Assembly (NCBI GenBank): GCA_963764715.1
Contig: CAVXTP010000022.1
Coordinates: 544,001-608,000 of the forward strand
Direction: 5' to 3'
From: an uncultured Acidobacteriota bacterium
Lineage (GTDB): Bacteria; Acidobacteriota; Thermoanaerobaculia; UBA5066; Gp7-AA6
DNA: 64,000 nt
Within the stretch, counting starts at the first letter, position 1; each line of letters starts with the position of its first letter. Below are positions 1 through 17,487 of the stretch, one piece after another. A model generated the notes under the pieces. It did not search any database, was not told where the DNA came from, and was given only the letters and a program-made list of their open reading frames with translations. Both the position numbers and the translations under genes were made by a program.

Positions 1-1
1 C

Positions 2-106
2 AAGGCCGACAAGCCGGGCGTCTTCCCCTACTACTGCACGAATTTCTGCTCCGCCCTCCACCAGGAGATGCAGGGCTACCTCATCGTCAGGCCCAAAAAG
101 GGCTGA
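2..106 (+). CDS. nosZ: Nitrous oxide reductase, clade II (C-terminal CuA end; 5'-truncated by window)
   Basis: Frame from base 2 reads KADKPGVFPYYCTNFCSALHQEMQGYLIVRPKKG*; CxxFCSALHxEM is the CuA motif in its clade II form; followed by nosB/D/F/L/Y. Confidence 0.93.
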   Translation, partial: KADKPGVFPYYCTNFCSALHQEMQGYLIVRPKKG

Positions 107-119
107 CCCGTCCCGAGAA

Positions 120-152
120 CCGGGCGGCGGAACTCCTCCCCCCGCCGCCCGG
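120..152 (+). other. GC-rich hairpin between nosZ and nosB (mRNA-stabilising/attenuating stem)
   Basis: CCGGGCGGCGG(120-130)...CCGCCGCCCGG(142-152) perfect 11-bp stem; no U-tract. Confidence 0.5.
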
Positions 153-170
153 AACTCACAGGAGATCCCC

Positions 171-821
171 ATGAAGGCCATCCTCGAACGGAGCAACCGG
201 GCGCTCGAACTGCCGCTGGACCTGCTCCCGCGACTGCTGCTTCTGGTGGCCGCGCTGCTTCTCGTCCCGACTTACCTGATGCCGCTCTGGAAGCTGACGA
301 TGTTCGCGCCGCAGTACCCGGACGGCCTGCGCCTGAACATCCACAGCTACAAACTCGAGGGCGGCAACGCCGGCCAGGACGTCAAGGAAATCAACATCCT
401 CAATCACTACATCGGGATGAGGGACCTGACGACGGCCGACTTCACCGAATTCAAGTGGATGCCGTTCGTCATCGGCATGCTGGGACTCCTCTTCCTTCGC
501 GCCCTCTTTCACGGGAGAATCGGTGATCTGATCGACGTCGTCGTGCTGTACCTGTACTTCGGCCTCTTCTCGCTGTGGTCCTTTGGCTACAAGCTCTACT
601 CGTACGGCCACAACCTCGCGCCGACCGCGTCGGTGAAGGTCCCGCCCTTCATGCCTCCGCTCTTCGGGTACAAGAAGCTCGCCAACTTCGAGGTCTACTC
701 GTACCCCGCCGCCGCGTCTTACGCCCTCGCCGCCGTCGGCGTGGTCCTTCTCGCCGCCCTCGTGCTGGCCCGGCGCGAGGCCCGCCTCGAGGAGCACGAG
801 GACGCCCGGACGGCCGGATGA
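171..821 (+). CDS. nosB: NosB-like 4-TM membrane protein of clade II nos clusters
   Basis: PLW..APQYPDGL, EINILNHYIGM, YSYGHNL..PFMPPLFGYKKLANF motifs; directly after clade II nosZ; AGGAG RBS. Confidence 0.85.
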   Translation: MKAILERSNRALELPLDLLPRLLLLVAALLLVPTYLMPLWKLTMFAPQYPDGLRLNIHSYKLEGGNAGQDVKEINILNHYIGMRDLTTADFTEFKWMPFVIGMLGLLFLRALFHGRIGDLIDVVVLYLYFGLFSLWSFGYKLYSYGHNLAPTASVKVPPFMPPLFGYKKLANFEVYSYPAAASYALAAVGVVLLAALVLARREARLEEHEDARTAG

Positions 822-2173
822 TCCTGCCCGCCGTCGCCCTCCTCCTCGCCCTGTCCGCAGAGGAAATGACTTCCGCGACGGCGGCCTCCGTCGAGGGACG
901 TCCCGCCGCCGGCGCCGTCTCGCCCCTCCAGGGGCGTGTCGACGCGGCCCCCGCGGGGTCCGTCCTCGAGATCGGGCCCGGCACCTACCGCGGCGACCTC
1001 TACATCGATCGTTCCATCACGCTCTCGGGACGCGGCCGCCCGAGGCTTCTGGGCTCGGGCACGGGAAGCGTCGTCCGCATCCGCGCCGCCGGCGTCGTCG
1101 TCCAGGGGTTCGACGTCGACGGGGGCGGAGGCGGGGATCTCGGGCGGGACGCCTCGGGAATCCACGTCGCGGCGAAGAACGTCACCGTGCGCGACTGCCG
1201 AATCACCAACGCCCTCTTCGGCGTGTACCTGCGCGAGGCCGACGGGTCGGCCGTCGAGCGCACCTCGATCCGGGGGATCCCGGGCAAGGACCCGGGCGAG
1301 AAAGGCTCCGGTATCCACGTCTGGAACACGAACGGCTTCCGCCTCGTCGGCAACACGATCGTCGACGTCCGCGACGGCTTCTACATCCAGTCCTCCGCGC
1401 ACGGCGTCATCCGCGGCAACACGGCGCGGGACCTGCGCTACGGGCTGCATTACATGTTCACGGACGACAACCTCTTCGAGGACAACACGTTCGAGAACGG
1501 CGCCGCCGGCACGGCGATCATGTACTCGAAGCGCATCGTCTTCCGGCGCAACCGCTTCCTGCACAACCGGGGGTTCGCGTCCGTGGGACTGCTGTTCAAG
1601 GCCTGCGAGGACGTCACGGCCGAGTCGAACCTCATCGCCGACAACGCGCGGGGGATCTTTCTCGAGGGGTCCTATCGCAATCTCTTCAAGGACAACGTCA
1701 TCGCCGAGTCCGACGTCGCGATCGTCCTCTACGACTCGTGCGCCGACAACCGCTTCGTCGGGAATCTCTTCCTCGGCAACATGACGCCGCTGACGCTCGT
1801 GGGCCGCCGGACCGACACCCGGTTCGACGGCAACTACTGGTCGGGCAACGGCGAGCCCGACCTCGACGGCGACGGCCGTAGCGACCGGCCCTATCGCCTC
1901 TCCTCGGTCTTCGACCACTTCCGCGGGAACCTGACGGCGGCCGACCTCTTCACGTCGAGCCTCGCCGCGTCCGCCCTCTCGGCCGCCGAGCGGGCGTTCC
2001 CCGTCCTCGAGCCCGTGACGGTGGAAGACCGGTCGCCGCTCGCCCGGCCGCCCGTCCTGCCATCCGTCCCGCGCCCGCCCCTTGCCCCTCGCGGCCGCAA
2101 CGCCGGCGCCCTCGCCGCCTGCGCCGCCGCCGTCGTTCTCGGGAGCGTCGCCGTCTGGGAAGGCCGCCGATGA
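818..2173 (+). CDS. nosD: Nitrous oxide reductase maturation protein NosD (periplasmic beta-helix)
   Basis: ATG at 818 overlaps the nosB stop (ATGA); signal peptide; GIHVWN, RDGFY, LRYGLHYM, GNYWS..DLDGDGRSDRPY motifs. Confidence 0.93.
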   Translation: MILPAVALLLALSAEEMTSATAASVEGRPAAGAVSPLQGRVDAAPAGSVLEIGPGTYRGDLYIDRSITLSGRGRPRLLGSGTGSVVRIRAAGVVVQGFDVDGGGGGDLGRDASGIHVAAKNVTVRDCRITNALFGVYLREADGSAVERTSIRGIPGKDPGEKGSGIHVWNTNGFRLVGNTIVDVRDGFYIQSSAHGVIRGNTARDLRYGLHYMFTDDNLFEDNTFENGAAGTAIMYSKRIVFRRNRFLHNRGFASVGLLFKACEDVTAESNLIADNARGIFLEGSYRNLFKDNVIAESDVAIVLYDSCADNRFVGNLFLGNMTPLTLVGRRTDTRFDGNYWSGNGEPDLDGDGRSDRPYRLSSVFDHFRGNLTAADLFTSSLAASALSAAERAFPVLEPVTVEDRSPLARPPVLPSVPRPPLAPRGRNAGALAACAAAVVLGSVAVWEGRR

Positions 2174-3069
2174 TCCGGTTCAAGGACTTCTCGAAGACGT
2201 TCGGCGGGAATCGCGCCGTGGACGGAGTGACGTTCTCGGTCGAGCGCGGCGAGGCCGTCGCGCTCCTCGGGCCCAACGGCTCGGGCAAGACGACCACGCT
2301 GAAGGCCGCCGCCGGCCTCATCCGGCCGACGTCCGGCGAGGTTCGCGTGGGCGAGCCGCCCCGCTCGCCGCAGGAGCCCGAGGCGCGAAACGCCATCTCG
2401 TACCTCCCCCAGAAGGTCACGTTTCCGGAAGCCGTCACGGGCCGCGAGATCGTCGACTTCTATCGCCGGCTCCGCAACGTCGATCCCGTCCGGGTCGACG
2501 AGGTCTTCCACTTCGCCTCGTTGAACGGCGCCTCCGCGCGTCCGGTCGGCACTTACTCGGGCGGCATGCTGCAGCGCCTGGGTCTCGCGATCGCGGTCCT
2601 TCCCCAGGCGCCGATCCTGCTGCTCGACGAGCCGACCGCGGCCCTCGATCCCGACGGCCTCTGCGCGTTCTACGGCCTCGTCGAGCGGCGCCGCCGGGAA
2701 GGGCACACGCTGCTCTTCACGTCGCACCAGCTCGGCGACGTCGAGCGGCTCGCCGACCGTTTCGTGCTCCTCGTGGAGGGCCGCCTCGCGGCGTCGCTGA
2801 CCCAGCGCGAGCTCGCGGACCGCCTGTCGCAGCGCGGCGTCCTGCGCCTGCGCCTCGAGCGCCGCGTCCCGGGCCTCGTCGAGCAGCTCCGCGCATTTTC
2901 ACCGGCCGCCGTCTGGGCGGCGGGCGAGCTCGTCATCGCCGGCCCCGCGGCCGACCGTCCCCGGATCCTCGACGTCGTGCGCGCGGCGGGCGGGCAGATC
3001 GTCGGCCTCGCGGCCGAGGAGGGCCGGCTCGACCTTCTCTATCGCGAGCTCGTGCGAGGCGAGGCGTGA
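2170..3069 (+). CDS. nosF: ABC transporter ATPase NosF
   Basis: Walker A GPNGSGKTT, signature YSGGM, Walker B LLLDEP; follows nosD. Confidence 0.9.
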   Translation: MIRFKDFSKTFGGNRAVDGVTFSVERGEAVALLGPNGSGKTTTLKAAAGLIRPTSGEVRVGEPPRSPQEPEARNAISYLPQKVTFPEAVTGREIVDFYRRLRNVDPVRVDEVFHFASLNGASARPVGTYSGGMLQRLGLAIAVLPQAPILLLDEPTAALDPDGLCAFYGLVERRRREGHTLLFTSHQLGDVERLADRFVLLVEGRLAASLTQRELADRLSQRGVLRLRLERRVPGLVEQLRAFSPAAVWAAGELVIAGPAADRPRILDVVRAAGGQIVGLAAEEGRLDLLYRELVRGEA

Positions 3070-3527
3070 GAGCCCGAGGGCTCCTCGCCGCCCTCGCCAT
3101 GGTCCCGATGATCGCCTGTGCCGGCGGCGACCCGGCGCCGGCCGCCCTCGACACCCGCCACGAAACCTGCCGCTCGTGCCGGATGCCGGTTTCGGACCCG
3201 CATCTGGCGGCCCAGCTCACGGCCCCCGGCGAGGAACCGGCCTTCTTCGACGACATCGGCTGCCTGCGCGACTACGTTCGCGAGCACACGCCCGAGGCGG
3301 GGGCCGTCGCCTGGGTCGCCGATCACCGGACCGCCGGCTGGGTTCGAGCGGCCGCCGCGACGTATGCGCTCTGTCCGACGATCGAGACGCCGATGGGGTC
3401 GCACCTGATCGCCTGGGCCGACGCACCCTCGCGGCAGTCGGACTCCGCGGTGAAGAACTGTGCCTCGCGGTCCGCACCGGAAATCTTCGGAGCGAGCCCT
3501 CCCGACGGCCACAAGAGAGGCGGTTGA
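3066..3527 (+). CDS. nosL: Copper chaperone lipoprotein NosL
   Basis: GTG 3066 overlaps the nosF stop; lipobox MIAC; CRSCRM, FFDDIGC, TPMGS motifs. Confidence 0.9.
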   Translation: MRARGLLAALAMVPMIACAGGDPAPAALDTRHETCRSCRMPVSDPHLAAQLTAPGEEPAFFDDIGCLRDYVREHTPEAGAVAWVADHRTAGWVRAAAATYALCPTIETPMGSHLIAWADAPSRQSDSAVKNCASRSAPEIFGASPPDGHKRGG

Positions 3528-3529
3528 GA

Positions 3530-3979
3530 ATGGAAACCAAGATCCCCCAGTCGATCCAGATGGAGCACGAGGAGCTCCACGAGCAGCTTGCCCGCGCGAT
3601 CAAGGCGGGCGGGAAGACGGGCGAAGCGGCCCGCGCCGTCATGAAGGTGCTCCAGCCGCACATGGCGCGGGAAGAGGAGATCGTCGCGCCCTGTCTCGCC
3701 CTGCTCCGGCCGGCCGCCGAGGGCACGCTGACCGCGGAGATGGCCGAGGCCCTGTCGCGTGTCGCGCCCCTGAAGGCCGAGATGCCGCGCATGCTGGAGG
3801 AGCACGGTCGGATCGTGGACGCGCTGCGCGAGCTCATCCGGGTGGCCACCGAGGAGAACCAGCCCGGGTTCGCGAAGCTCGCCCAGATGCTCGTGGCCCA
3901 CGCCCAGGAAGAAGAGGAGATCCTCTACCCCGCCGCCATTCTGCTGGCGGAGGTTCTCAAGGCGAGGTTCGGCGCATGA
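3530..3979 (+). CDS. Hemerythrin/HHE cation-binding domain protein (cytoplasmic)
   Basis: METKIP...EHEELH...PHMAREEE...EEHGRI...AHAQEEEEILYP: repeated H..HxxxE pattern; no signal peptide. Confidence 0.8.
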   Translation: METKIPQSIQMEHEELHEQLARAIKAGGKTGEAARAVMKVLQPHMAREEEIVAPCLALLRPAAEGTLTAEMAEALSRVAPLKAEMPRMLEEHGRIVDALRELIRVATEENQPGFAKLAQMLVAHAQEEEEILYPAAILLAEVLKARFGA

Positions 3980-4821
3980 CCGCTCCCGACGCGAGGTCGG
4001 TCGTCCTTCTCTGCGCGCACCAGGAGCTGGTCCTCGCGGTCCGGTCGCGCTGGACCCAGATCTTCGCGGCCGTCTTCGCCGCGCTGTCGCTGGCGGTGGC
4101 CGCGTCCGGCTACGTGCTGTCGGGCGGCGCCGGATTGCAGGACTTCGCGAGGACCGCGGCCTCGCTCGTCCAGCTCGTTCTCCTCCTGACTCCCCTGACC
4201 TCGCTCGTGATCGGCGTCCTCGCGCTCGCCCCCGAGCGCGGCGCCGCGGAAATGCTCTTCTCGCAGCCGGTCTCGCGGCGCGCGATCCTGCTCGGCCGCC
4301 TCCTCGGCCTCTTCGCCGCCCTCGCCGCGGCGCAGGCGATCGGCCTCGGGGGAGCCGGCCTTCTCGTCTTCTCCCGCGCCGGAGGCACCGGGGCGGCCGG
4401 CTACGGCATCCTGTTCCTCGGCGCCCTCGTGCTGACCGCCGTCTTCCTCGGAATCGCCGCGCTGCTCGTCTCCGGAGGGGTCGGCCGACGCGCGAAGTCC
4501 CTCGCCGTCGCCCTGATCGTCTGGTTCGGCGCCGTCGTCCTCTTCGACGTCGCGGCCCTCGGTGTCGCGTCCCTGCTCGGCTCGACCGCCGCTTCGCGGC
4601 TTCTCATCGCGGCCGTGCTGGTCAATCCCATCGACGCTTTCCGCACGGGCGCCCTCCTCGCAATCCAGGGCACGACGGCGTTCGGCGGCGCGTCCCTCGC
4701 CCTCCTGCGATTCACGCGGGGCCCCGGCGGAGCCGCGGCGCTGCTCGGGCTGTCCGCGGTCCTCTGGCTCGTGCTGCCGGCGGCCTTCGCCGCCCGACGG
4801 CTCGAACGCGCCGACCTCTGA
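3976..4821 (+). CDS. nosY: ABC transporter permease NosY
   Basis: ATG 3976 overlaps the previous stop; multiple TM segments; ERGAAEMLFSQPVSR and NPIDAFR motifs. Confidence 0.87.
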   Translation: MTAPDARSVVLLCAHQELVLAVRSRWTQIFAAVFAALSLAVAASGYVLSGGAGLQDFARTAASLVQLVLLLTPLTSLVIGVLALAPERGAAEMLFSQPVSRRAILLGRLLGLFAALAAAQAIGLGGAGLLVFSRAGGTGAAGYGILFLGALVLTAVFLGIAALLVSGGVGRRAKSLAVALIVWFGAVVLFDVAALGVASLLGSTAASRLLIAAVLVNPIDAFRTGALLAIQGTTAFGGASLALLRFTRGPGGAAALLGLSAVLWLVLPAAFAARRLERADL

Positions 4822-4825
4822 GGTC

Positions 4826-5281
4826 CTAGATCCGCTCTTCGCGCCGGGTCGCGTGGAGGACCTGGCCGACGAGGATCAGCAGTCCGACGTCCCGCAGGAT
4901 CGCGAGCTTCATGTCGTTGAGGCGCTCGGCGTCGGTCTTCTGGACCTTCGCGGTGCCGAAGCAGCCGCAGTCGACGGGCCTCCCGCGCGCGAGGTTGATC
5001 GACAGGGCGACGATGAACACGAGGAGGAGGATCCCGAGAACCCGGGCCGCGGAACGCCTCGCGATCCCGAGGAAGAGGGCGATTCCCGCCACGACCTCGA
5101 GCCAGGGCAGGATGAGCGCCAGCGCGTTGACCGCCGCGCCGGGCAGGAGCCCGTAGTTGTGGATCTCGTGGGCGAAGCCGGGCGGGTCCGAGATCTTGAA
5201 GAAGCCGGCGACGGCGAAGAACGCCGCCAGCACGAACTGGACGCGGACCGTGAGCCAGGGCGAGGAAAGCCCGCCGCTCAA
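4826..5281 (-). CDS. MauE/DoxX-family membrane protein
   Basis: TTG start overlapping the rhodanese stop; KISDP..FA..I.NY, LPWLE, ARGRPVDCGCFG, RDVGL motifs. Confidence 0.82.
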   Translation of the reverse strand: MSGGLSSPWLTVRVQFVLAAFFAVAGFFKISDPPGFAHEIHNYGLLPGAAVNALALILPWLEVVAGIALFLGIARRSAARVLGILLLVFIVALSINLARGRPVDCGCFGTAKVQKTDAERLNDMKLAILRDVGLLILVGQVLHATRREERI

Positions 5282-5865
5282 GGCTCGGACCCCTTCGTGA
5301 CCGGCAGCCCGCGCTTGACCCAGTCCGGGTAGCCGTCCTTGTACACGAGGACGTTGTCGAAGCCGACCATGTAGAGCTTCTCGGAGAGCATGTGCGAGTC
5401 TTCGCAGGCGCCCCCGCTGCAGTAGACGACGATCGGCGCGCTCTGGTCGGTGCCCTCGGCGAAGTAGGCCTTGACCTTGTCGTCGATGTCCGACTCCCAG
5501 ACCGAGAACGGCCGGGCGCCCGCGACGTGGCCGTCGCGATAAACGCTCGTGCGCCGGGCGTCCAGGAAGGGCACGGTCTTGCGCGCGTAGAGCTCGGCCG
5601 CTTCCTCGCCCGAGATCTCGAGCCAGGCCTTGTCGGGATGGGGCGAGAACCCCTTGCCGGCCGCGGGCGCCCCGAGCGCGGTCGACGGCGCCGCCGGAGC
5701 GGCAGGAGTCGGCCTCGCGGTGACGGCGGACCCGGGCCTCTCGTAGGCCCCGATCCACTTGAGGCGGCGTTCGGGCCCCGCGAGGGCGTTGGAGATCGAA
5801 GCCGCGACGATCGACACGAGGACGAACCCCGCGGCCTCGACCCAGAACGGCGCCCGGCTTCTCAC
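5278..5865 (-). CDS. Membrane-anchored rhodanese-domain protein
   Basis: N-terminal TM segment; FLDAR, GHVAGA, active loop YCSGGACEDS, GYPDWVKRGLPV. Confidence 0.85.
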   Translation of the reverse strand: MRSRAPFWVEAAGFVLVSIVAASISNALAGPERRLKWIGAYERPGSAVTARPTPAAPAAPSTALGAPAAGKGFSPHPDKAWLEISGEEAAELYARKTVPFLDARRTSVYRDGHVAGARPFSVWESDIDDKVKAYFAEGTDQSAPIVVYCSGGACEDSHMLSEKLYMVGFDNVLVYKDGYPDWVKRGLPVTKGSEP

Positions 5866-5899
5866 CCCGGCATCTTAGCCGAGGCGGCCTTCCGTTCGG

Positions 5900-6604
5900 C
5901 TAGGAACCGTACCGCTGGATGCGGCGCACCAGCTCGTCCGCGCCGTCGTGGCCGAGCAGGTCGTCGACCGACGGATACAGGACGTGCTCCTCCTTGGCGT
6001 TGTGCTCGCCGAGCACGGCGTGGAAGCTCGCGCGGAGCGGCGCGACCTGCGCGGCGGCGTCCCCGATCCCGAGCTCGATCGCCTCGAGAAGCCGGAGGAT
6101 CTCCCGATGCTCGGCCCGCATCACGGCCGTGGGCCCGGCGGTCGGCGGCATTCCCGCGCCGGACTCGAACGCCGGAAAGAGCAGGTCCTCCTCGAAGCCG
6201 ATGTGGCGGCGAAGCCCGAAGGCGAACTCGGAGTACAGATCGAATGCCGTGGCGAGGTCGCCCTCGGCCCGCGCGCGGAAAGCGGCCGCCTCGAGGGCCT
6301 CGAGACGATCGTGGTCCCACGCCAGCGCTTCGTTCACTCCGCGGGCCGCGGCCCGGGACGCGTCGCTGCGCGCGATCTCGATCCGCCACGCCGGCGGTCC
6401 CGCCTGCAGGGGCGACCATTCGAACGTCCCCGGGCGAGCGGCCTGGAGCCGCCGGAGCAGCTCGCCGCCGGAATCGCCGCAGGTCAGGACGAACCGTTCC
6501 GCGGGACCGAGCGTGTCGAACCACGTGAGCAGCTCCGCCGCCGCATCCTCGGCCGACCGGCCGCGGACGTCGAGCGCGCGCTCCGCCGTCACCAGATGAG
6601 TCAT
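5900..6604 (-). CDS. DUF2249-like N-terminal domain fused to hemerythrin (HHE) domain
   Basis: ATG 6604 with GGAGGG RBS; LDVRG..FDTLGPAERFVL..FEWSPLQAGPPAWRIEIAR then DHDRLE, HIGFEEDLLFP, GPTAVMRAEH, HNAKEEHVLYP. Confidence 0.78.
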   Translation of the reverse strand: MTHLVTAERALDVRGRSAEDAAAELLTWFDTLGPAERFVLTCGDSGGELLRRLQAARPGTFEWSPLQAGPPAWRIEIARSDASRAAARGVNEALAWDHDRLEALEAAAFRARAEGDLATAFDLYSEFAFGLRRHIGFEEDLLFPAFESGAGMPPTAGPTAVMRAEHREILRLLEAIELGIGDAAAQVAPLRASFHAVLGEHNAKEEHVLYPSVDDLLGHDGADELVRRIQRYGS

Positions 6605-6671
6605 GGGACCTCCCTCCGGAGCGGCCCTCCGCCCCGCCGGGACAGGATCGCAGGCCGGCCGCCGCGGGCCT

Positions 6672-6685
6672 ATGACCGGGATCAT
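6672..6685. promoter_or_regulatory. CRP/FNR-family-like palindrome ATGAC-N4-ATCAT
   Basis: ATGACCGGGATCAT resembles TTGAT-N4-ATCAA; lies between divergent genes; sister copy at 17355. Confidence 0.55.
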
Positions 6686-6696
6686 CCCGGCGGGCC

Positions 6697-6711
6697 TGAT
6701 GCGTTTGCATC
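6697..6711. promoter_or_regulatory. Second candidate operator TGATGCGTTTGCATC (GATGC-N4-GCATC palindrome)
   Basis: 13/15 identical to 17405-17419. Confidence 0.5.
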
Positions 6712-6747
6712 TATGCGGACGCCGAATCGCGCCCGAGGCTAGCCCCA

Positions 6748-8472: not shown

Positions 8473-8479
8473 ACGGGTC

Positions 8480-8947: not shown

Positions 8948-9778
8948 GCGGCCCCCTCCATGCCGACCCTCTGCCGGCGGAATGCTCCCCAGATCGCGGC
9001 CCCGATCGCCCCGGCGTACGCCGACAGCGGGTCGCGCGCCAGCTCGAGCGGCGCCGCTCCCCGGGCCGCTCCCTGCGCGAGCGCGGCCGACAGCGCCACC
9101 GCGAGCCCGTCGTCGGCGGCGAGGCCCCCGCTCAGGAAGACGGTCCCCTCGACGCCGAGGGAATGGAGCAGCCGCGCGAAGCGTCCGGCCATGCTGTCGT
9201 GGATCCCCCGCAGGATGTTGGCGGCGCCGAGGCCCCGCGAAACCATGTTGATCACGTCCGTCTCGGCGAGCACGGCGCAGATCGAGCTGACGGCCTCGGG
9301 CTTCTCCGCGGTCTGCGACAGGGCCCCGATGTCGGCCTGGGCGACACCCAGGTAGCGGGCGATGTTCTCGAGGAACTGGCCGGACCCCGAGGCGCACTGA
9401 CTCGTCATCTTGTAGCCGAGCACCTTGCCCCGCGAGTCCATCGCCACGGCCCGCGCGTGGAGGGCGCCGATGTCGAGAACGGCCCTCGCCCACGGCGCCA
9501 GAAAGAGCGCCCCGCGCGCGTGCGTCGTCATTCCGTAGAAGTGGCCCGTGGCGATCGGGCGTCTCCTCCCCTTCGCCTGTCGACGCGACGTAGTCGAGCT
9601 CGCGGACGCCCGCGGCCTCGACCGCCGCGTCGAAGGCCTCGGCGACGACCTCGGCGACGTTGCGGCGGCGGACGCGCGCCACCGCGTGGCCGAGCACCCG
9701 GTCCTCGCCCTCCCCGACCCGCAGGATCGCCGCCTTGACGGCGCTCGAGCCGACGTCGATCCCGGCCGTGACGCTCAT
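8923..9778 (-). CDS. bcrD: Benzoyl-CoA reductase subunit D (ATPase); one apparent +1 frameshift near 9557-9559
   Basis: [15 protein letters not shown]...YVASTGEGE joins [15 protein letters not shown]...[22 protein letters not shown]...[18 protein letters not shown] if one base of GGG 9557-9559 is removed. Confidence 0.87.
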
Positions 9779-11059
9779 GCCGCCGCTCCCCGAAGCGCGA
9801 AGTGCGCCGCCCCCAGCGCTCCCGTGTAGATGCTGTCGGCCGAGATGTTGATCCGGCGCTCGCCGTAGTTCTCGGCAATCAATCCCGTCAGCGCCTGCAC
9901 CGCCGCGGGGTTGCGCGCCACGCCGCCGGTGAAGGTGAACTCGTTCTCGACGCCGCCCGACCGCGCCAGCAGGCTCAACGCCCGCAGGATCACGGCGCGG
10001 TGGAGCCCGGCCAGGATGTCCTCGCGCTTCTCGCCGAGCGAGAGCCGCTCCCGCAGCTCGGCCCCCGCGAAGACCGTGCAGGTCGAGCTGATCCGGACCG
10101 GCCGCCGGCTCTCGAGGGCCAGGGGCCCGAGCTCGTGGAGGCCCATGTTCATCTCGTCGGCGATGTACCCGAGGTAGCGCCCGCAGCCGGCGGCGCAGCG
10201 GTCGTTCATCTGGAAGCTCGTCACGATCCCGGCCCCGTCGACCTGGATCGCCTTGGTGTCCTGCCCGCCGATGTCGAGGACGGTCCGCGTGGCCGGGAAG
10301 AGCACGTGGGCGCCGAGTCCGTGGCAGAGGATCTCGGACCGGATCTGCTCCTTCGGGAACGGGAGCCGCGCGCGGCCGTATCCCGTGCCGACCGTCGCCG
10401 CGACCGCGATTTCCGCCGTCACCGCCGCCTCGACGGCAGCCCGCACCCCCGGCGTCTCGCCGACGCGCTCGACGGCCTGGCCGATGTGCTCCCGGAAGCC
10501 GAGCTCGAGCGGCTCGTTCTCGACGAGGACGATGCACTTGTCGTAGAGCCCGACCAGCGCGTCGAAGGTGACGCCCGAGCCGCCCTCCCGCGCGGCCTCC
10601 TCCGAGAGCCGGGCGTAAGCCGAGCCGGCCGCGTCGCGGAAGAAGTCCGAGCGCTCGGAGGGATTCGCTTCGGCGAAGCGGGCCTCCTCCTCGGGCGCGG
10701 AGGCGCTCGAAGATGCGGACGACGGCGGCCCGGAGTCGCCTCGCGCCGGCCGGCGGGATGCCCTTCTCGATCTCCTCCCCGATCTTCGCCTCGAGCGACG
10801 AGAGCTGCACGAGCATCTGTTCGAGACGGAACGCTCGCAGGAGGCGGTTGAGCGTCCCGAGCCCGGCCGCCTGCTCGACTTCCCGCTGCAGGAGCCGGAA
10901 GCGCGCGCTGACGAAGGCCTCGGTGCGGGCGAGCTCCGCCGCGAGGTCGTAGTTGGAGCGGGAGTTGGTGATCCCGCGACCGAGCACCTCGCCCCGCTCG
11001 TCCAGGACGACGGCCTTCGTCGTCGTCGAGCCGAGGTCGATCCCGACGAACGCTTTCAC
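9775..11059 (-). CDS. bcrA: Benzoyl-CoA reductase subunit A (ATPase); one apparent +1 frameshift near 10693-10695
   Basis: [22 protein letters not shown]; after a one-base correction continues SDFFRDAAG...[42 protein letters not shown] (428 codons). Confidence 0.88.
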
Positions 11060-12342
11060 GCGCCGACGCCCGCGGCCGCGCCCGCCCGGCGGGCGTCGAG
11101 CATCTGGAAGTAGCTCTCCATGCGGTTCTTGAGGTTGGCGGCCGAGAAGTACCGGGGGTCCACGAGGTCCGACTCGATGAACGCCCCGGGCAGGCCCGTG
11201 CGGCGCTCGACCTCGCGCAGCATCATGAGCTGGCCGGCCGAGAAGGAGTTGCAGGACTTGACCGAGTGGATCAGGAACCCGTCCGCGGCGTACTCCTCGG
11301 CGTACTGCGCGATCATGTCGACGCGCGACGGGAGGTTCCGGTTGGTGTAGCAGCCGCTGCAGTAGTCCGCGAGCGTGCCGAGAGGATCGGAGGGGTCGTG
11401 GCGGAAGCCGAGGTCGTACGTTCCGCCGACCTTCGAGTAGGTGGACGCCACGACGACGGCGCCCTCGTCGGCGAAGAGCTTCCAGAACTCGCGGAAATGG
11501 GTCCAGTTGGGCGGGCCCTCGACGACAAGCCGGTGCTTCTGGCGGTCGAGCCGGCCGGACGGCGTCGTCGGGCCTTCCCCGCGCGCCGCGCGCTCCTCGA
11601 CCTCCTGCCGGAGCGCCCGGTAGTACGCGCCCCCTTCCTCGGTCCCGCGGAAGGCCGAGAAGATGGGCCCGACGTAGTAGACGGCGCCGAAGTAGGCATC
11701 GATCGGGCTCGGCGTCTTCTTGGCGGACTCCAGGACCGCCACCAGGTCGTCCTCCGCGGCCGCGCTCCGGGTGAGGTTCTCGCGCAGCCGGTCCTCGTCG
11801 TATCGGCGGCCGGTGGCCTTCTCGAGGGCCGGCACGAGGGTTTCGCGGATCTGGCGCTCGACGTACGTCCGCATCGCCGGCGATTGCGTCCCGTCGCCCT
11901 GGTACGGGATCTGGAGGAACACCGTCGGGCACTGGTACGCCTCGCGCAGCAGCTCGAACCACTTCATGAACGTGTAGCAGCCGGTGTAGGAGAGAAGCAG
12001 CAGGTCCGGCTTCGGCAGCCGCGTCCCCGTCGGGCTGACGTTGCCGGCTTTCAGCATCCCGACGTCGCACTTCACGTACGAGCAGACGTCCTCGGAGTGG
12101 CCGGCCTTCTCGGCGGCGGCGATGTAGCCCCCGCTCTTGCCGCGCATGGCCGACTGGAGAGCGTTGATCTCGGGCAGCACCGGCAGCGCGTCGAAGGAGC
12201 GGATGAGCTCCGTGAGGTTACCCGGCACGAAGGTGTAGACGACCGGCTCGCCGGTCTCGGGCGCCGCCTCGAGACGGCGATAGTGCTCCGCCAGCATCTC
12301 CTTCTGGAGGAGCATCGAGCGGTCTTTTTCGGTCTCGGACAT
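11056..12342 (-). CDS. bcrB: Benzoyl-CoA reductase subunit B (Thauera type)
   Basis: TFVPGNL, GHSEDVCSYVK, SYTGCYTFMKWFELLR, SPIDAYFG, VVEGPPNWT, CYTNRNLP, KSCNSFSAGQL, DLVDPRYFS; closely matches recalled T. aromatica BcrB. Confidence 0.93.
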   Translation of the reverse strand: MSETEKDRSMLLQKEMLAEHYRRLEAAPETGEPVVYTFVPGNLTELIRSFDALPVLPEINALQSAMRGKSGGYIAAAEKAGHSEDVCSYVKCDVGMLKAGNVSPTGTRLPKPDLLLLSYTGCYTFMKWFELLREAYQCPTVFLQIPYQGDGTQSPAMRTYVERQIRETLVPALEKATGRRYDEDRLRENLTRSAAAEDDLVAVLESAKKTPSPIDAYFGAVYYVGPIFSAFRGTEEGGAYYRALRQEVEERAARGEGPTTPSGRLDRQKHRLVVEGPPNWTHFREFWKLFADEGAVVVASTYSKVGGTYDLGFRHDPSDPLGTLADYCSGCYTNRNLPSRVDMIAQYAEEYAADGFLIHSVKSCNSFSAGQLMMLREVERRTGLPGAFIESDLVDPRYFSAANLKNRMESYFQMLDARRAGAAAGVGA

Positions 12343-12473
12343 CTATTGTTCTCCCGGCAGGGTGCTGCCTGAGGCGACATGGCGTGCGACCGGCCGACCG
12401 GCTCCTGGCCCTCTGGTTTCGCAGTGCCGTTGCCGACCTGCCGAAGCGTTGACGCCGCCTCTATCGAAAAGCA

Positions 12474-13641
12474 CTAGGCGCCTCCCCAGAGCTTGATCGC
12501 GTCGGCGAACGTGCCGGCCTGCTCGCGAAACTGCTGGAACTGGCCGGTGTTCTCGGCGAACTGGAACGCGATGCACGGGATGCCCGCGGCTCTCGGCTCC
12601 CGCTCGCAGCATCGGCCGGTCGAGCAGCGCCGGGTCGCAGAAGCTCGCCGACGCGAAGATGACGCCGTCGGCCCTCGCCGCCGCCACGCGCTCGGCGAGG
12701 AGGCGCCGCTTTCCGTCCGGATCCGGCTCGTAGAGCGTGGAGTTGCGGACCGAGTGCCGCACGAAGGCCTCCGCGAGGTTGTGGAGCGGATCGCCCTCGA
12801 GCGGGACATCCCCGTCGATCATCCGGTTGCCGAGAAGGAAATCGTCGTCGACGATGAAGCAGCCCGCGCGCTCGATCGTCTTGACGAGCCCGAGCGGAGG
12901 CTGCTCGCAGAAGGCGCCCACGACGACGACCCGCGCCCGGTCGCGCACGCGGCCCGGCTCCGCCTCGACCGCGGCGAGGTACGCGCGCACGCGCTCGAGG
13001 AAGTCCTCGAGCGGCACGAGCTCCCCCGCGCGCATCAGGAGGTACAGCTCCTCGGTCGGCACGCTCCAGGGGGCGTCCCGGCGCGCCTGGTAGAGACGCC
13101 GGATGAGCGCGCGGGCGGTGTTGTACGCCCCGATCGCCTCGCGGAGGGACTCCTCGGTCGCCGGGGCGCCTCCCACCCGTCCGAGATCGCGCCGCAGCAC
13201 CTCGAGCTCGTCCCGCCAGAAGGCCGTCTGGATCGACGACTCCCCTCCCTGCGGCAGGTCGAGGTAGCGGACGTACAGGTCGGGATAGAGCAGCTTCCAT
13301 ACCCCCGACAGGTTGCGGATGACGTCGCAGGTCGCCGGGAAGAGGACCGCCGAGAGGAAGTCGAGCCGTCCCGACTGCGCGAGCTCGACGACCGAGCGGG
13401 GCAGGTGGCAGATGTAGGACTGGTAGAAGGCGTCCCCGCGGATGATCTCGAGGCGGTCACCGCCCCCGTGGATGCCGACCGGGAGAAGGCCCGAGGCCCG
13501 CAGGACCTCCCGGGGCGCGTAGACCGGAAGATATCCCGCCGCCTTCCGGCCGGGCCGCTCCGCGATCCAGGCGCGCGCCGCCGAGAACTCCAGGTCCTCG
13601 CAGACGTCTTCGGCCCAGTCGACGATCTCGGCTCGTTTCAC
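12474..13641 (-). CDS. bcrC: Benzoyl-CoA reductase subunit C; one apparent +1 frameshift near 12583-12585
   Basis: GDAFYQSYICHLPRS, CDVIRNLSGVWK, GAFCEQPPL, SFCDPALLDRPM; the C-terminus GIPCIAFQFAENTGQFQQFREQAGTFADAIKLW lies in the next frame. Confidence 0.88.
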
Positions 13642-14423
13642 GTGTGGGACCAGACCGGAGGCCGGCGCTCGAGAAAGGCGGTCAGGCCCTCGACGGGGTC
13701 GCGGTGGGACATGAGGTCGTTCAGGTACTGGGCCTCGAGGACGGGCAGGTCGTCGTCGAGCGACGCGGCGAGGAGCCTCCGCGACGCGCGCCAGGCCGCG
13801 CGCACGGCCACGGCCGACTTGTCGGCGAGGCGCTCTCCGTACCAGCGCTGCAGGGCCGCCTCCGCGTCGTGGTTGCAGCCGTCGATCAGTCCCCAGGCGG
13901 CCGCGCCCTGCGCGTCGAAGGTGTCGCCCGAGACGATCAGCTGCGTGGCTCTCGCCCCGGTCACGCGCCACGGCAGGACGATCGCGGCGACCGGGGGAAA
14001 GACGCCCAGGCGCGTCTCCGGGACGCCGAAGCGCGCCGACGCCTCGCCGAAGACCATCCCGCACCAGAGCGCGAGCTCGAAGGCGCCGCCGAGGCACTGG
14101 CCGCGCACCACCGCCGCCGTGGGCGTCCCGAGCGCCTCGAGGTCGCGGAACAGGCCGTGAAACGCGGGCAGCAGCTCGCCGACCCGGTCCGGCATGTGCT
14201 CCTGGACCGACGCTCCGAAGCTGAAGTGATCGCCCGCGCCCTCGAACACCAGGAGCTTGAGAGGACCGGGGTTCTTCGCGAGCTCGACCAGGCGCGCGCG
14301 GATCGCGCCGATCATCTCCCGGTCGAGGACGTTCGCCTTCGGCCGGTCGAGAACGATCCGCTGGATCTCCCCGCCGCGCTCCGCTCCGCAGCGGATCGGG
14401 GACGTCGCAACCGTTTCCGTCAT
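13638..14423 (-). CDS. dch: Cyclohexa-1,5-dienecarbonyl-CoA hydratase
   Basis: Crotonase fold: RPKANVLD, HFSFGASVQEH, GQCLGGAFEL, PETRLGVFPP, YLNDLMSHRDPVEGL; between had and bcrC. Confidence 0.9.
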   Translation of the reverse strand: MTETVATSPIRCGAERGGEIQRIVLDRPKANVLDREMIGAIRARLVELAKNPGPLKLLVFEGAGDHFSFGASVQEHMPDRVGELLPAFHGLFRDLEALGTPTAAVVRGQCLGGAFELALWCGMVFGEASARFGVPETRLGVFPPVAAIVLPWRVTGARATQLIVSGDTFDAQGAAAWGLIDGCNHDAEAALQRWYGERLADKSAVAVRAAWRASRRLLAASLDDDLPVLEAQYLNDLMSHRDPVEGLTAFLERRPPVWSHT

Positions 14424-15529
14424 GAAACCTCCTCGGCGTCGGGTACGAGGACGACGCGGCGTTCGACCCGATGCGCCCGAACGTCCTCGAGGACCTCGGC
14501 GATCCTCGAGAGCGGCCGCAGCTCGGCGTGCGAAGCGACCTCGATCCGTCCCGCGAGCACCTTTTCCAGGATCTCGGGATAGAGCCCGGGCGCGCAGCCC
14601 CAGTTCCCCAGCGCCCGCGCGTCGAAGGCCATGAGGTTCGAGAGCCGCACCGCGACGGTCTCGAGCGTGAAGCCGACGACCATGAGCGTCGCGCCGTGGA
14701 CGAGGAGGCCGAAGGCCGTCTGCTGGCCCGCGGGCGTGCCCGAGCATTCGAGGATCGTCCAGCCCGTCGCCGGCGCGCCCTTCTCGCGGGCGAAGGCAGC
14801 GAGCCGGCCCCGGAGCTCCTTCGCCGGCAATTCGCGGGGGTCGAGCGCGAGGCCCACGCCGATCTTCGAAGCCGCGTCCCTCCGGCGAGCGTCGACGTCG
14901 AGGCCGACCACCGCCGCGCCCCGCTCGGCCGCGACCTCCGCGGCGAAGGTCCCGACGCCGCCCAGCCCGACGACGACGGCGAGCTCCCCGAAGCGAACGC
15001 CGGACCGCTCGACCGCCTGGTAGGCCGTCGAGACCGCGTCGGCCACGACGGCGAGGTGCCGGAGCGTCAGTCCCGGCGCGTCACCCAGCGGAGCATCCGG
15101 ATCCTGCCCCGCGCCCGGCACCGGGCACAGGAAGCGTCCCGGCAGCACGACGCGGTCGGCGAAGCCCCCATCCCGGTCGTTGCCCGGCATGATCTGGGAC
15201 GCGCAGATGGTCGATCGTCCCGCGCGGCAGAGCGCGCACTCGCCGCAGGGCAGCACCGCCGGAACGACGACCGCGCGGCCGACGAGCTCCCGCTGGCGGC
15301 TTCCCGCGTCCTCGACGTAACCGCTGATCTCGTGGCCCAGGATCAGCGGCAGCGGATGGCGCGTGCGCACGCCGTCGTTCAGGAAGCCGAGGTCCGTGTG
15401 GCAGACGCCGCACCCGGCGACCCGGATCAGGACGTCTTCCGCGTCCAGCGTCCCGACCTCGCGGCGAGCGGGAGCGAGGGCTCCCGCCGTCCCGGCGAAC
15501 TCGTACCCCCGGATCGTCGTCACGCTCAC
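14420..15529 (-). CDS. had: 6-hydroxycyclohex-1-ene-1-carbonyl-CoA dehydrogenase (Zn-dependent)
   Basis: VAGCGVCHTDLG..DGVRTRHPLPLILGHEISG, CGECALC..C, SNLMAFDARALGNWGC. Confidence 0.92.
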   Translation of the reverse strand: MSVTTIRGYEFAGTAGALAPARREVGTLDAEDVLIRVAGCGVCHTDLGFLNDGVRTRHPLPLILGHEISGYVEDAGSRQRELVGRAVVVPAVLPCGECALCRAGRSTICASQIMPGNDRDGGFADRVVLPGRFLCPVPGAGQDPDAPLGDAPGLTLRHLAVVADAVSTAYQAVERSGVRFGELAVVVGLGGVGTFAAEVAAERGAAVVGLDVDARRRDAASKIGVGLALDPRELPAKELRGRLAAFAREKGAPATGWTILECSGTPAGQQTAFGLLVHGATLMVVGFTLETVAVRLSNLMAFDARALGNWGCAPGLYPEILEKVLAGRIEVASHAELRPLSRIAEVLEDVRAHRVERRVVLVPDAEEVS

Positions 15530-16272
15530 GCCCCCAGCGCCTGTCCGCCGTCGACGGCGAGGGCCTGGCCCGTGATGTGCGCGGCGCCGGGCCCGGCGAG
15601 AAACGCGACGGCCTCCGCGATCTCCTCCGGCCGCGCCGCGCGGCCGAGCAGCGTCTCGGCGAGGGCCTTGCGGCGGACCTCGTCGGAGAGCGCCGCGGTC
15701 ATCGGCGTGTCGGTGAAGCCCGGCTCCACCACGTTGACCGTGACGCCGCTCGCGGCGAGCTCCCGGGCCGCCGAGCGCGCGAGGCCCAGGAGGCCGGCCT
15801 TGGCTGCGGCGTAATTGGCCTGGCCGAATTTGCCGCGCCGCCCGTTGATCGAGGAGATGATGACGACGCGACCCGACGGGCTCCGGCGGAGCGCCGACGC
15901 CGCGGCGCGCAGGTAGTTCGCCGCGCCCGAGAGATCCACCGCGATGACCCGATCCCACGCCTCGTCGCTCATCTTCCAGAGGACGCCGTCACGGCAGATC
16001 CCGGCGGCGAGCACCAGGAGGTCCAGCGCCTTGCGACGCTCGAGGACGTCGCCGACCGTCCGGCGCGCGGCCTCCGCGTCCGCCACGTCCGCCGCGTAGA
16101 GGTTTGCCTTGCCGAACGCGCGGGCGAGACCGCCGAGGCGCCGCGCATCGGCGTCGACGATCGCGACGGCGGCTCCCGCGGCCTTCAGCCGCCGGGCGCA
16201 GGCGAGACCGATGCCGCTCGCGCCGCCGGTCACGAGCGCGACCCGACCGGCGAGCTCGCGACGGGGGCTCAC
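15526..16272 (-). CDS. SDR oxidoreductase (3-hydroxyacyl-CoA/3-oxoacyl reductase-like; candidate 3-hydroxypimeloyl-CoA dehydrogenase)
   Basis: VTGGASGIG, GKFGQANYAAAK, ITGQALAVDGG; start and stop overlap oah and had. Confidence 0.8.
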   Translation of the reverse strand: MSPRRELAGRVALVTGGASGIGLACARRLKAAGAAVAIVDADARRLGGLARAFGKANLYAADVADAEAARRTVGDVLERRKALDLLVLAAGICRDGVLWKMSDEAWDRVIAVDLSGAANYLRAAASALRRSPSGRVVIISSINGRRGKFGQANYAAAKAGLLGLARSAARELAASGVTVNVVEPGFTDTPMTAALSDEVRRKALAETLLGRAARPEEIAEAVAFLAGPGAAHITGQALAVDGGQALGA

Positions 16273-17318
16273 TCGAGCTTGCCTCCGCACGCACCGCAGT
16301 GGGCGAAGGTCGCCGGCAGCCCTTCCGCGCCGCAGCTCCGGCAGGCCCGCACGTGCGCTCCCCACGGCGTCTCGGGGGACCCGCCCGGCTCGACGGCGCG
16401 GCGCCGGACTGCGGCGAAGTCGACCGGCCGCTTGTGGGCGAACGCGCTCATGCCCTCGAAGGGCTCGTAGTCGGTGTAATGGAGGGCCAGCCAGTCCTGC
16501 GCGTGGCGCACCGTGAGAGCCCAGGAGAAGTCCTTCCAGAAGTTGACCTGCTGCTTGGTGTAGCGAACGCACTCGGGAAACGTCCGGAGGAGCTCCGCCG
16601 CCAGGCGGCCGACTTCCTCGTCGAGGGGCGCGAGGTCGATCGAGTACCCGTCCGCTCGCTTCTGCGCCTTTTCGATCTCCTCGGGCGAGGCGATGGCCAC
16701 GAGCTCCCCGCCCCGGCGCACCGACGGCGCGACCCGGTTGACGAGCCCCCATTCGAGCGCCAGGCGCGCGGGAATCGGGCGGTTGGTGAAGAGCATCTCG
16801 CGGGCGCGCTTGTCGCCGACCGTGATCGGCAGCCACTGCGTGGCGCCGCCGCAGGCGACCGATCCGACGCGGACGCCGACCTGGCCGACGTAGGCGTGCT
16901 CGGCGATCACCGCGAGGTCGCAGGCGAGGACCGTCTCGTTTCCGCCGCCGACCGCCACCCCGTTGATCCGCGCAATCACGGGCTTCCCGGTCGAGAGGAT
17001 CGCGTCGATGTAGGCGCGGAAGAGCGCCATGTACTTCCAGTAGTCCCGGGGCGCCCCGATGTAGGTCTCGGCGTACTCCTTGACGTCGCCGCCCGTGCAG
17101 AAGGCGCGGTCCCCCGCGCCCGTCAGGACGATGACGCCGACCGCGTCGTCGAAGGTGGCCTCGCGCAGCCCCGCTGCGAGCTCCTCGAGGCAGGAGGTCG
17201 AGTAGGCGTTGTACCGGCCGGGACGGTTGATGGTGATCCGGGCGACACCGTCCTTCTTCTCGTAGAGGATCTCCTTGAAGGACAGGGAGGAGACCTCGCG
17301 AGGCGGGAAGGCGCGCAT
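16269..17318 (-). CDS. oah: 6-oxocyclohex-1-ene-1-carbonyl-CoA hydrolase (ring opening)
   Basis: NRPGRYNAYST, GDRAFCTGGDVKEYAETY, NGVAVGGGNE, GSVACGGATQWLP, FPECVRYTK; C-terminal CRSC..CGAC; start chosen at ATG 17318. Confidence 0.87.
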   Translation of the reverse strand: MRAFPPREVSSLSFKEILYEKKDGVARITINRPGRYNAYSTSCLEELAAGLREATFDDAVGVIVLTGAGDRAFCTGGDVKEYAETYIGAPRDYWKYMALFRAYIDAILSTGKPVIARINGVAVGGGNETVLACDLAVIAEHAYVGQVGVRVGSVACGGATQWLPITVGDKRAREMLFTNRPIPARLALEWGLVNRVAPSVRRGGELVAIASPEEIEKAQKRADGYSIDLAPLDEEVGRLAAELLRTFPECVRYTKQQVNFWKDFSWALTVRHAQDWLALHYTDYEPFEGMSAFAHKRPVDFAAVRRRAVEPGGSPETPWGAHVRACRSCGAEGLPATFAHCGACGGKLE

Positions 17319-17354
17319 CAGTCTGCAGTCTCGTACGGGGTCCGGCGGGTGCGC

Positions 17355-17368
17355 ATGATCTGCGTCAT
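17355..17368. promoter_or_regulatory. CRP/FNR-family-like palindrome ATGAT-N4-GTCAT upstream of oah-bcr operon
   Basis: ATGATCTGCGTCAT, about 37 nt upstream of the oah start. Confidence 0.55.
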
Positions 17369-17404
17369 GGCACAAAGGATCCACTCGAGCGCCCACCCAC
17401 CGAA

Positions 17405-17419
17405 TGATTGGTTTGCATC
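17405..17419. promoter_or_regulatory. Second candidate operator TGATTGGTTTGCATC
   Basis: 13/15 identical to 6697-6711; AT-rich patch in GC-rich DNA. Confidence 0.5.
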
Positions 17420-17487
17420 AGATCGGGAGATTCCTGATCCCGGGCAAGCGCCGGTGTCGGCCCCTCGGCCGGGGGCCCGGAGGTGCT

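Follow-up and report, generated by a model that had tools for sequence, protein, structure and literature searches.

Adjacent gene clusters for clade II N2O reductase and class I benzoyl-CoA reductase in an uncultured acidobacterium: probably two separable accessory operons at one variable locus

Class I benzoyl-coenzyme A (benzoyl-CoA) reductase is mainly a trait of denitrifying or phototrophic Proteobacteria, and in Thauera aromatica its genes form a bcrCBAD cluster together with the ferredoxin gene fdx and with dch, had and oah. In clade II clusters for nitrous oxide (N2O) reduction (nos), the membrane protein NosB is encoded directly after nosZ. Here we describe a 64,000-nucleotide stretch of an uncultured Acidobacteriota genome (assembly GCA_963764715.1, contig CAVXTP010000022.1; G000:C22:544001-608000), called the window below, in which clusters of these two kinds are neighbors. 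A minus-strand cluster at 8480-17396 with the order oah-SDR-had-dch-bcrCBAD-GNAT faces a nos cluster. We think it probable that the two are ordinary accessory operons, each transcribed on its own, that stand back to back at one variable chromosomal locus, and not one co-regulated module, because within the genus all four combinations of presence and absence occur and because a conserved palindrome precedes bcr and not nos.

Both clusters are of standard kinds and each has already been noted in the phylum. nosZII is reported from 481 of 491 nosZ-bearing Acidobacteriota genomes, Acidobacteriota nosZII makes up a major part of soil nosZ pools, and Luteitalea pratensis reduces N2O (PMC13122619, in the part of its text available). 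Acidobacteriota metagenome-assembled genomes (MAGs) with class I benzoyl-CoA reductase (BCR) have been described, among them MAG003 from mangrove sediment, which also has napAB, narGH, nirS, norBC and nosZ and is proposed to mineralize lignin-derived aromatics anaerobically (PMC11704145, likewise in part). MAG003 is thus like G000 in being an acidobacterial genome with class I BCR and nosZ; it differs in its napAB, narGH, nirS and norBC genes, and the available text, supplements aside, does not report gene adjacency. Two preprints mention bcr or benzoyl-CoA genes in Acidobacteriota MAGs (10.64898/2026.05.27.727921; 10.1101/2025.11.25.690425; available portions). An earlier note on this DNA, made from the sequence alone, knew of no description in this lineage; nosZII and class I BCR with denitrification genes were in fact already on record in Acidobacteriota. 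Literature searches combining 'benzoyl-CoA' with 'Thermoanaerobaculia' found no paper, those combining clade II nosZ with benzoyl-CoA found only a Gemmatimonadota paper whose available text makes no linkage claim, and no report of nos-bcr adjacency was found, supplements aside. What is new is the family-wide neighborhood and the conserved predicted operator on the bcr side.

Assembly G000 (4.36 Mb in 26 contigs, completeness 96.8%, contamination 0.9%) has a G+C content of about 0.70. Genes were identified by Pfam and NCBIfam scans of open frames, with scores compared to family cut-offs, and 17 kb upstream of the window was fetched (L001) to recover nosZ and flanking genes. A BcrB scan yielded 500 confirmed relatives, the best 80 of which were kept as loci. 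Among these 80 the closest (97-98% identity, same gene order) are titled uncultured Acidobacteriota bacterium; the next are MAGs titled Thermoanaerobaculia, Vicinamibacteria, Gemmatimonadota, Planctomycetota, Myxococcota and Krumholzibacteriota, and identity to Rhodospirillales and other Proteobacteria is 62-68%. The two best PGI matches (95% and 92% identity, only these top two being informative for taxonomy) are both titled Acidobacteriota, in agreement with the titles of the near-identical bcr loci, so that the host is an acidobacterium, as had been supposed. Its class is probably Thermoanaerobaculia, going by record titles alone.

The locus was compared in five relatives. Within the genus it occurs in four states:

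G000: both blocks at the locus
G042: nos block at the locus; bcr cluster on another contig
G045: bcr block at the locus; no nos genes
G032 (2 contigs, 98% complete): neither block; SurE beside the rhodanese-MauE genes and radical-SAM and E1-like genes

With all four states present in a single genus, nos and bcr form separable accessory units that flank a short backbone. The genes between nosY and the bcr subunit cluster fall out as follows:

4826-5865, minus strand: MauE/DoxX membrane protein and rhodanese, the backbone genes (PF07291, 96.9 bits; PF00581, 52.9 bits)
5900-6685, minus strand: protein with DUF2249 and hemerythrin domains (PF10006 and PF01814)
6748-8472, plus strand: polytopic membrane protein of 574 amino acids with many transmembrane-like segments, part of the bcr block

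The MauE/DoxX and rhodanese genes are kept in G032, which has neither nos nor bcr. The DUF2249-hemerythrin gene lies beside GNAT/bcr in L002-L004, L007, L010, L012, L044, L053, L066, L073 and L076, was found neither in G032 nor at the locus where G042 has nos alone, and so travels with the bcr block. The 574-residue protein has no Pfam or NCBIfam family at E≤0.1; it is 79-81% identical in L002-L004, and counterparts of 33-38% identity stand beside bcr in L012, L015, L016, L018, L020, L029 and L064. The backbone between the blocks thus consists only of the MauE/DoxX and rhodanese genes. A GltD-like flavoprotein gene and cytochrome genes travel with nos in the relatives compared. The earlier note had proposed a single module; the two clusters are instead convergent transcription units, and at the same locus within the genus each block occurs without the other.

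Two palindromic sites accompany the bcr block:

17405-17420, no strand: palindrome TGATTGGTTTGCATCA, two mismatches to TGATGC-N4-GCATCA, just upstream of oah
6697-6712, no strand: palindrome TGATGCGTTTGCATCT, one mismatch to TGATGC-N4-GCATCA, in a divergent promoter region

The site at 6697-6712 is conserved in L002, L004 and G045. Within about 130 nucleotides upstream of oah, a site with at most two mismatches is present in 19 of 20 related loci and also in G045, G042, G106 and G068. In the nos promoter regions of the four genomes examined there is none (0/4). G000 contains 10 perfect and 30 one-mismatch copies of TGATGC-N4-GCATCA, against 0 perfect and about 7 one-mismatch copies in single-base shuffles; a base-frequency estimate, which is our own figure and not a tool result, gives about 0.1 perfect copies. 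Copies (G000 C17:41431; 15 sites in C18:4988-40872; C23:66444 and 75906; C14:88847; and others) lie beside genes for pyruvate:ferredoxin oxidoreductase, a 2-oxoacid oxidoreductase, the NiFe-hydrogenase small subunit, an MtrC-like multiheme cytochrome, two universal stress proteins, a ribosome hibernation factor, PfkB, FeoB, cytochrome c peroxidase and a LuxR-type regulator, the last with two copies at its own gene. This is reminiscent of hypoxia or dormancy regulons, that of DosR in mycobacteria for example, and the palindrome looks like the predicted operator of a hypoxia or stress regulon. The bcr unit thus has conserved predicted control of a low-oxygen type that nos does not have; with the palindrome upstream of oah and not of nos, the predicted bcr control would not be common to the two, and the co-regulation that had been proposed finds no shared operator.

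Another candidate, the FNR/CRP box TTGAT-N4-ATCAA, gave only two-mismatch matches (the window has 8 where 3.2 are expected, and L001 has 2 where about 1 is expected). The FNR-like match upstream of oah is better explained as part of TGATGC-N4-GCATCA, and this box was not used as evidence. A different perfect palindrome, ATGATGCAAATCAT, lies at L001:7767-7780 (about -7233 relative to the window) in the divergent region between the radical-SAM and GltD-like genes; it has one half-site in common with TGATGC-N4-GCATCA and a different spacing.

How far the neighborhood extends was followed by whole-genome searches of 175 genomes of the order, G000 included. These genomes are related to each other and overlap the loci of the BcrB scan, and the counts are descriptive, not a statistical test. 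bcrB is present in 36, Sec-type nosZ in 69 and both in 26. In 11 of the 26 the two genes share a contig, 9-27 kb apart and convergent in every case (11/11), in four genera: four g1 genomes with a distance of 11 kb, two of g3 with 9-10 kb, one of g6 with 14 kb and four of g9 with 23-27 kb. In the remaining 15 the genes are on different contigs, mostly in fragmented assemblies (80-700 contigs), the less fragmented cases being G042 (6 contigs) and G030 and G063 (about 20). A first count, by which only 3 of 80 loci had nosD/F/Y next to bcr and one further locus had nosY alone, was discarded, as its flanks of ±10 kb were too short and understated linkage. The synteny in related MAGs that the earlier note had thought worth seeking is thus there.

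These assemblies also bear on the idea that the adjacency is a chimera of two organisms joined within 4.8-8.5 kb, which we regard as extremely improbable. G037, G046 and G048, with the genes about 11 kb apart, show this order and orientation too, as do members of three further genera, which makes 10 other assemblies in all; across the junction, L002 and L003 can be aligned at about 91% nucleotide identity; and composition is even, with G+C 0.67-0.75 over 1-18 kb. No sign in favor of a chimeric join was found, although the assembly does carry many small indel errors. The adjacency is therefore taken as real.

The bcr unit itself reads as follows:

16269-17396, minus strand: oah-like ring-cleaving hydrolase, first gene of the bcr unit (best family TIGR03200, 200.4 bits, cut-off 464.45; BadI, 172)
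15526-16257, minus strand: SDR-family oxidoreductase (PF13561 and PF00106; FabG-like, below equivalog cut-offs)
14420-15508, minus strand: had, 6-hydroxycyclohex-1-ene-1-carbonyl-CoA dehydrogenase (TIGR03201, 420.5 bits, cut-off 338.65)
13638-14390, minus strand: dch-like dienoyl-CoA hydratase (best family TIGR03189, 207 bits, below the cut-off of 292.5)
12343-13560, minus strand, start approximate: bcrC (TIGR02263, 424.5 bits, cut-off 421.15, model positions 2-353 of 380)
11056-12342, minus strand: bcrB, intact (TIGR02260, 669.5 bits, cut-off 486.55; BzdO model, 74 bits)
9775-11053, minus strand: bcrA (TIGR02259, 444.5 and 110.2 bits in two frames, cut-off 578)
8923-9778, minus strand: bcrD (TIGR02261, 280.4 bits for the 3' part, cut-off 312.85; N-terminal part in another frame)
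8480-8947, minus strand: GNAT acetyltransferase downstream of bcrD (PF00583)

Models of the bzd type score only 72-139 bits on these subunits, against 280-670 bits for the bcr models, which places the predicted enzyme as a class I benzoyl-CoA reductase of the Thauera/bcr branch and not of the bzd branch, in keeping with the bcr-type label first given to it. In L004, a relative of the same genus, the subunits are intact and score 574.2 bits for BcrA (cut-off 578), 336.7 for BcrD (312.85) and 465.7 for BcrC (421.15). The Azoarcus/Aromatoleum-type reductases with solved structures, MbdO of 3-methylbenzoyl-CoA reductase (PDB 9g87) and BzdO (PDB 8s02), belong to the same superfamily, to which BcrB matches with 220 and 75.5 bits, respectively; MbdO is the nearest solved structure, and the difference lies in the branch.

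The likeness to the Thauera aromatica cluster is in the subunit order C-B-A-D, in the presence of ring-processing genes in the same unit, and in equivalog-level matches for BcrB, BcrC and Had in the window and for BcrC and BcrD in L004 (BcrA there falls just short, 574.2 against 578). The window cluster differs from it in having no ferredoxin gene in or near it, an SDR gene between oah and had, and GNAT and DUF2249-hemerythrin genes after bcrD; the GNAT gene follows bcrD in most of the Acidobacteriota loci among the 80 kept. It differs further in that dch and oah score below cut-offs, in that three subunit genes are frame-broken as assembled, and in its host, an acidobacterium in which no nar, nap, nirK or nor was found and nirS is unconvincing. 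Two observations stand apart. In contigs from three soil runs, position 12342/12344 is joined straight to 12476, so that about 131-133 bases between the end of bcrC and the start of bcrB (12344-12476), present in G000 and its closest relatives, are missing. In L073, of another genus, 2-oxoacid:ferredoxin oxidoreductase genes, split over several frames, lie directly downstream of the bcr cluster (L073:16425-19192), a position that fits an electron-donor role.

As assembled, bcrC, bcrA and bcrD have interrupted reading frames. There are single extra bases near 12589 (bcrC), 10695 (bcrA) and 9556 (bcrD), and related loci align without them (L002-L005 for bcrD and bcrA, L002-L004 for bcrC). In bcrC the extra base shifts the C-terminal end, and the BcrC match ends 27 model positions early; bcrA has an additional compensated -1/+1 pair at about 10750/10736; in bcrD the extra base is a G, which is lacking also in two soil contigs of 95-99% similarity. 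Are these genes decaying, or is the consensus wrong? If the insertions were real, the cluster would be a set of pseudogenes and benzoyl-CoA reduction would have been lost. This would agree with the comparison of 4.8-19 kb with L002-L004, in which all five window-private non-triplet indels (5/5) fall in bcrC, bcrA or bcrD and none in about 10 other genes, and with the 95-99% similar soil contigs, which lack the extra base wherever they differed at a break site. As those contigs stem from relatives instead of the source strain, they cannot separate error from mutation; among the sequencing runs there was none of RNA, and none contained more than 0.20 of the sampled words.

The same assembly carries comparable breaks elsewhere. 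The single-copy, essential rpoB gene (C6:63379-67593) has three frame switches, so that its sequence runs through four frames, and one coxA copy (C24:49733-51598) is split over two; rpoC and secA are intact. A frame detector (a Viterbi model of codon usage), which recovered 3/3 of the bcr breaks and 2/3 of the rpoB breaks, found 433 candidate frame switches in the 3.93 Mb of coding sequence of G000. They are clumped: half of the gaps between neighbors are below 1.5 kb, 46 of 935 segments of 4.6 kb (4.9%, against 1.2% under a Poisson model) have at least three, and single contigs have between 0 and 5.6 of them for every 10 kb of coding sequence. L002 has a private extra base of its own within the same 60-nucleotide stretch of bcrA, a sign that base calling is difficult there. 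The correct frames hold no stops, and bcrB is 97-98% identical to its relatives. Loss of function by decay is accordingly an improbable explanation. Since rpoB is also frame-split and candidates are patchy genome-wide, the three extra bases most likely represent consensus (assembly) errors, and three of the four bcr genes would seem broken only through such patchy single-base errors; any 'pseudogene' or 'split gene' reported from G000 needs the same caveat. The gene with an RNB domain at about 55809 in the window is another site of such patchy indels.

The facing nos cluster is only partly inside the window, and its genes are:

1-106, plus strand: 3' end of nosZ, clade II (Sec-type), with a TGA stop at 104-106; the gene starts 1909 bases upstream of the window
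171-821, plus strand: nosB-like membrane protein, 216 amino acids with about four transmembrane-like segments by hydropathy
818-2173, plus strand, start approximate: nosD (TIGR04247, 384.4 bits, cut-off 300; PF05048)
2170-3069, plus strand: nosF-like ABC ATPase, assigned by position (PF00005, 103.8 bits, a generic family only)
3057-3527, plus strand, start approximate: nosL lipoprotein (PF05573, 24.8 bits against a cut-off of 24, borderline; lipobox-like IACAG)
3530-3979, plus strand: hemerythrin-domain protein between nosL and nosY (PF01814, 46 bits)
3976-4821, plus strand: nosY-like ABC-2 permease (PF12679, 50.8 bits, a generic ABC family only)

The full nosZ gene (window -1909 to 106, L001:13091-15106) is a frame of 671 amino acids whose product scores 910.1 bits on the Sec-type model TIGR04246 and 440.4 on the TAT-type model TIGR04244 (cut-off 625 for each), far in favor of clade II, as the earlier note had it. 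The gene order proposed for this cluster, nosZ(II)-nosB-D-F-L-Hr-Y, stands; the window itself holds only the last 106 bases of nosZ, and the naming of nosB has no family match behind it. The nosB-like protein matches no Pfam or NCBIfam family. Its gene follows nosZ directly in all three nos-bearing relatives examined (G042, G106 and G068; 64-80% identity), and the label fits from position and topology. The maturation genes nosD, nosF, nosY and nosL are all present, and upstream of nosZ lie genes for a cytochrome b, a multiheme cytochrome c and a GltD-like Fe-S flavoprotein. The cluster is thus like other clade II clusters in its Sec-type NosZ, the membrane protein after nosZ, nosD/F/L/Y, and cytochromes b and c upstream; it differs in the hemerythrin gene between nosL and nosY, an arrangement of the window genus that is not shared by G106 or G068, and in that its block includes the GltD-like flavoprotein and adjoins a bcr cluster.

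Two of these genes deserve a comment of their own. The GltD-like protein, an NAD(P)-binding Fe-S flavoprotein of 684 amino acids whose C-terminal domain is of the 2x[4Fe-4S] type, is encoded at the head of the nos block (L001:7998-10052, window -7002 to -4951); its gene occurs with nos in G042 and G068 and is absent from G032 and G045, and it is possible that it serves as the electron-input protein for N2O reduction. The position of the hemerythrin gene varies: in this genus it stands between nosL and nosY, in G068 it comes after nosY, and in G106 it is 11 kb distant. An orthologue 82% identical is kept in the bcr-only relative G045, which is without any nos genes.

A search of G000 for denitrification genes, which the earlier note had suggested, found no nirK, and the nirS family gave only weak partial matches that are unconvincing. 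There is no NarG or NapA among the four loci for molybdenum bis(pyranopterin guanine dinucleotide) (Mo-bisPGD) enzymes (two formate dehydrogenases, NuoG and one unclassified enzyme), and no NorB among the heme-copper oxidase matches, all of which are aa3-type oxidases. The two formate dehydrogenase alpha-subunit genes (C11:66171-69590 and C18:37356-40565) have one in-frame TGA each, probably a selenocysteine codon. Four loci of the POR_N type (2-oxoacid:ferredoxin oxidoreductases) could supply low-potential electrons. Electron sinks other than N2O are encoded as well, namely an MtrC/MtrF-like multiheme cytochrome, the unclassified Mo-bisPGD enzyme and aa3 oxidases; N2O is thus a plausible acceptor during anaerobic oxidation of aromatics and not the only candidate. 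A ligase on C10 that was considered as a benzoate-CoA ligase is a general acyl-CoA synthetase, and the enzyme of the xanthine dehydrogenase family encoded beside it was rejected as a 4-hydroxybenzoyl-CoA reductase (182 bits against 994.55).

This inventory and the distribution of the two genes bear on a stronger proposal, that the locus is a selected anoxia island by which non-denitrifiers oxidize aromatics with external N2O as their main anaerobic acceptor, paying in this way for ATP-costly ring reduction. The close and convergent arrangement in 11 of the 26 genomes with both genes (g1, g3, g6 and g9) speaks for it, as do the mere two small backbone genes between the blocks and the lack of nar, nap, nirK, nor and a convincing nirS. 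So do counts within genera: in g8 (15 genomes) the single bcr genome is the single nosZ genome, in g7 (15 genomes) all 3 bcr genomes are among the 5 with nosZ, and in g1 (44 genomes) 8 have both, 6 bcr only, 2 nos only and 28 neither. Related genomes are not independent samples, however, and two linked blocks are likely to be lost together through their linkage alone; one genus shows all four states, no operator is common to nos and bcr, the other electron sinks just named are encoded, and in the sister family f3 nosZ is present in 32 of 63 genomes and bcrB in 1 of 63. We therefore hold a selected island of this kind to be rather unlikely.

The reading that we prefer, two ordinary operons that happen to be neighbors and have the activities assigned to them, has points to its disadvantage as well. 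In the family of 105 genomes (24 with both genes, 9 with bcr only, 11 with nos only or 10 if G058, flagged as unpublished, is left out, and 61 with neither) bcrB and nosZ co-occur beyond independence, which could reflect selection for joint retention, and the linkage is maintained across four genera. dch and oah score below equivalog cut-offs; no ferredoxin gene lies within about 30 kb (-30 to +31 kb), where the only CxxCxxCxxxCP motifs sit in the GltD-like flavoprotein; and the best benzoate-CoA ligase matches in G000 reach 226.8 and 223 bits against a cut-off of 375.25. With a completeness of 96.8%, gene absences in G000 are not proof, and all three single-extra-base breaks fall in bcr genes.

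With two separate operons as the preferred reading, the host would be a facultatively anaerobic soil acidobacterium. Its bcr unit would encode an ATP-dependent benzoyl-CoA reductase of the Thauera type, an activity predicted from sequence, and Dch, Had and Oah would hydrate, oxidize and hydrolytically open the reduced ring. Other parts of the genome encode 2-oxoacid:ferredoxin oxidoreductases, the probable source of low-potential electrons for the unit, which may itself be switched on through TGATGC-N4-GCATCA, in common with stress and anaerobic-metabolism genes. The nos unit (cytochrome b, multiheme cytochrome c, Sec-type NosZ, the NosB-like protein, NosDFY and NosL) would reduce N2O, presumably taken up from the surroundings because nar, nap, nirK and nor are not seen in the genome and nirS is unconvincing. 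N2O may be among the acceptors used while aromatics are oxidized, and any coupling would run through common quinone and ferredoxin pools and not through a dedicated joint module. As for the anoxia module once proposed to couple ring reduction to N2O respiration, the conserved neighborhood holds up and the unit of transcription or inheritance does not, the coupling being our interpretation. A coupled module is unsupported at both those levels, and coupling is still a plausible and testable physiological idea, for which the conserved neighborhood and operator provide handles in the form of primers, reporter targets and enrichment conditions.

Tentatively, one may go further and suppose that in this one family of soil Acidobacteriota ring reduction and clade II N2O respiration stand side by side because they cooperate, so that these non-denitrifiers would consume the N2O of neighbors at the expense of lignin-derived aromatic acids in anoxic microsites, with bcr under a hypoxia regulon that uses the newly seen TGATGC-N4-GCATCA. 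Acidobacteriota are among the most abundant soil bacteria. If this were true, the family would harbor an N2O sink fueled by aromatic carbon, soil N2O would be consumed at the expense of a carbon source that has been overlooked, and denitrifying or phototrophic Proteobacteria would lose their place as the main holders of class I benzoyl-CoA reductase.

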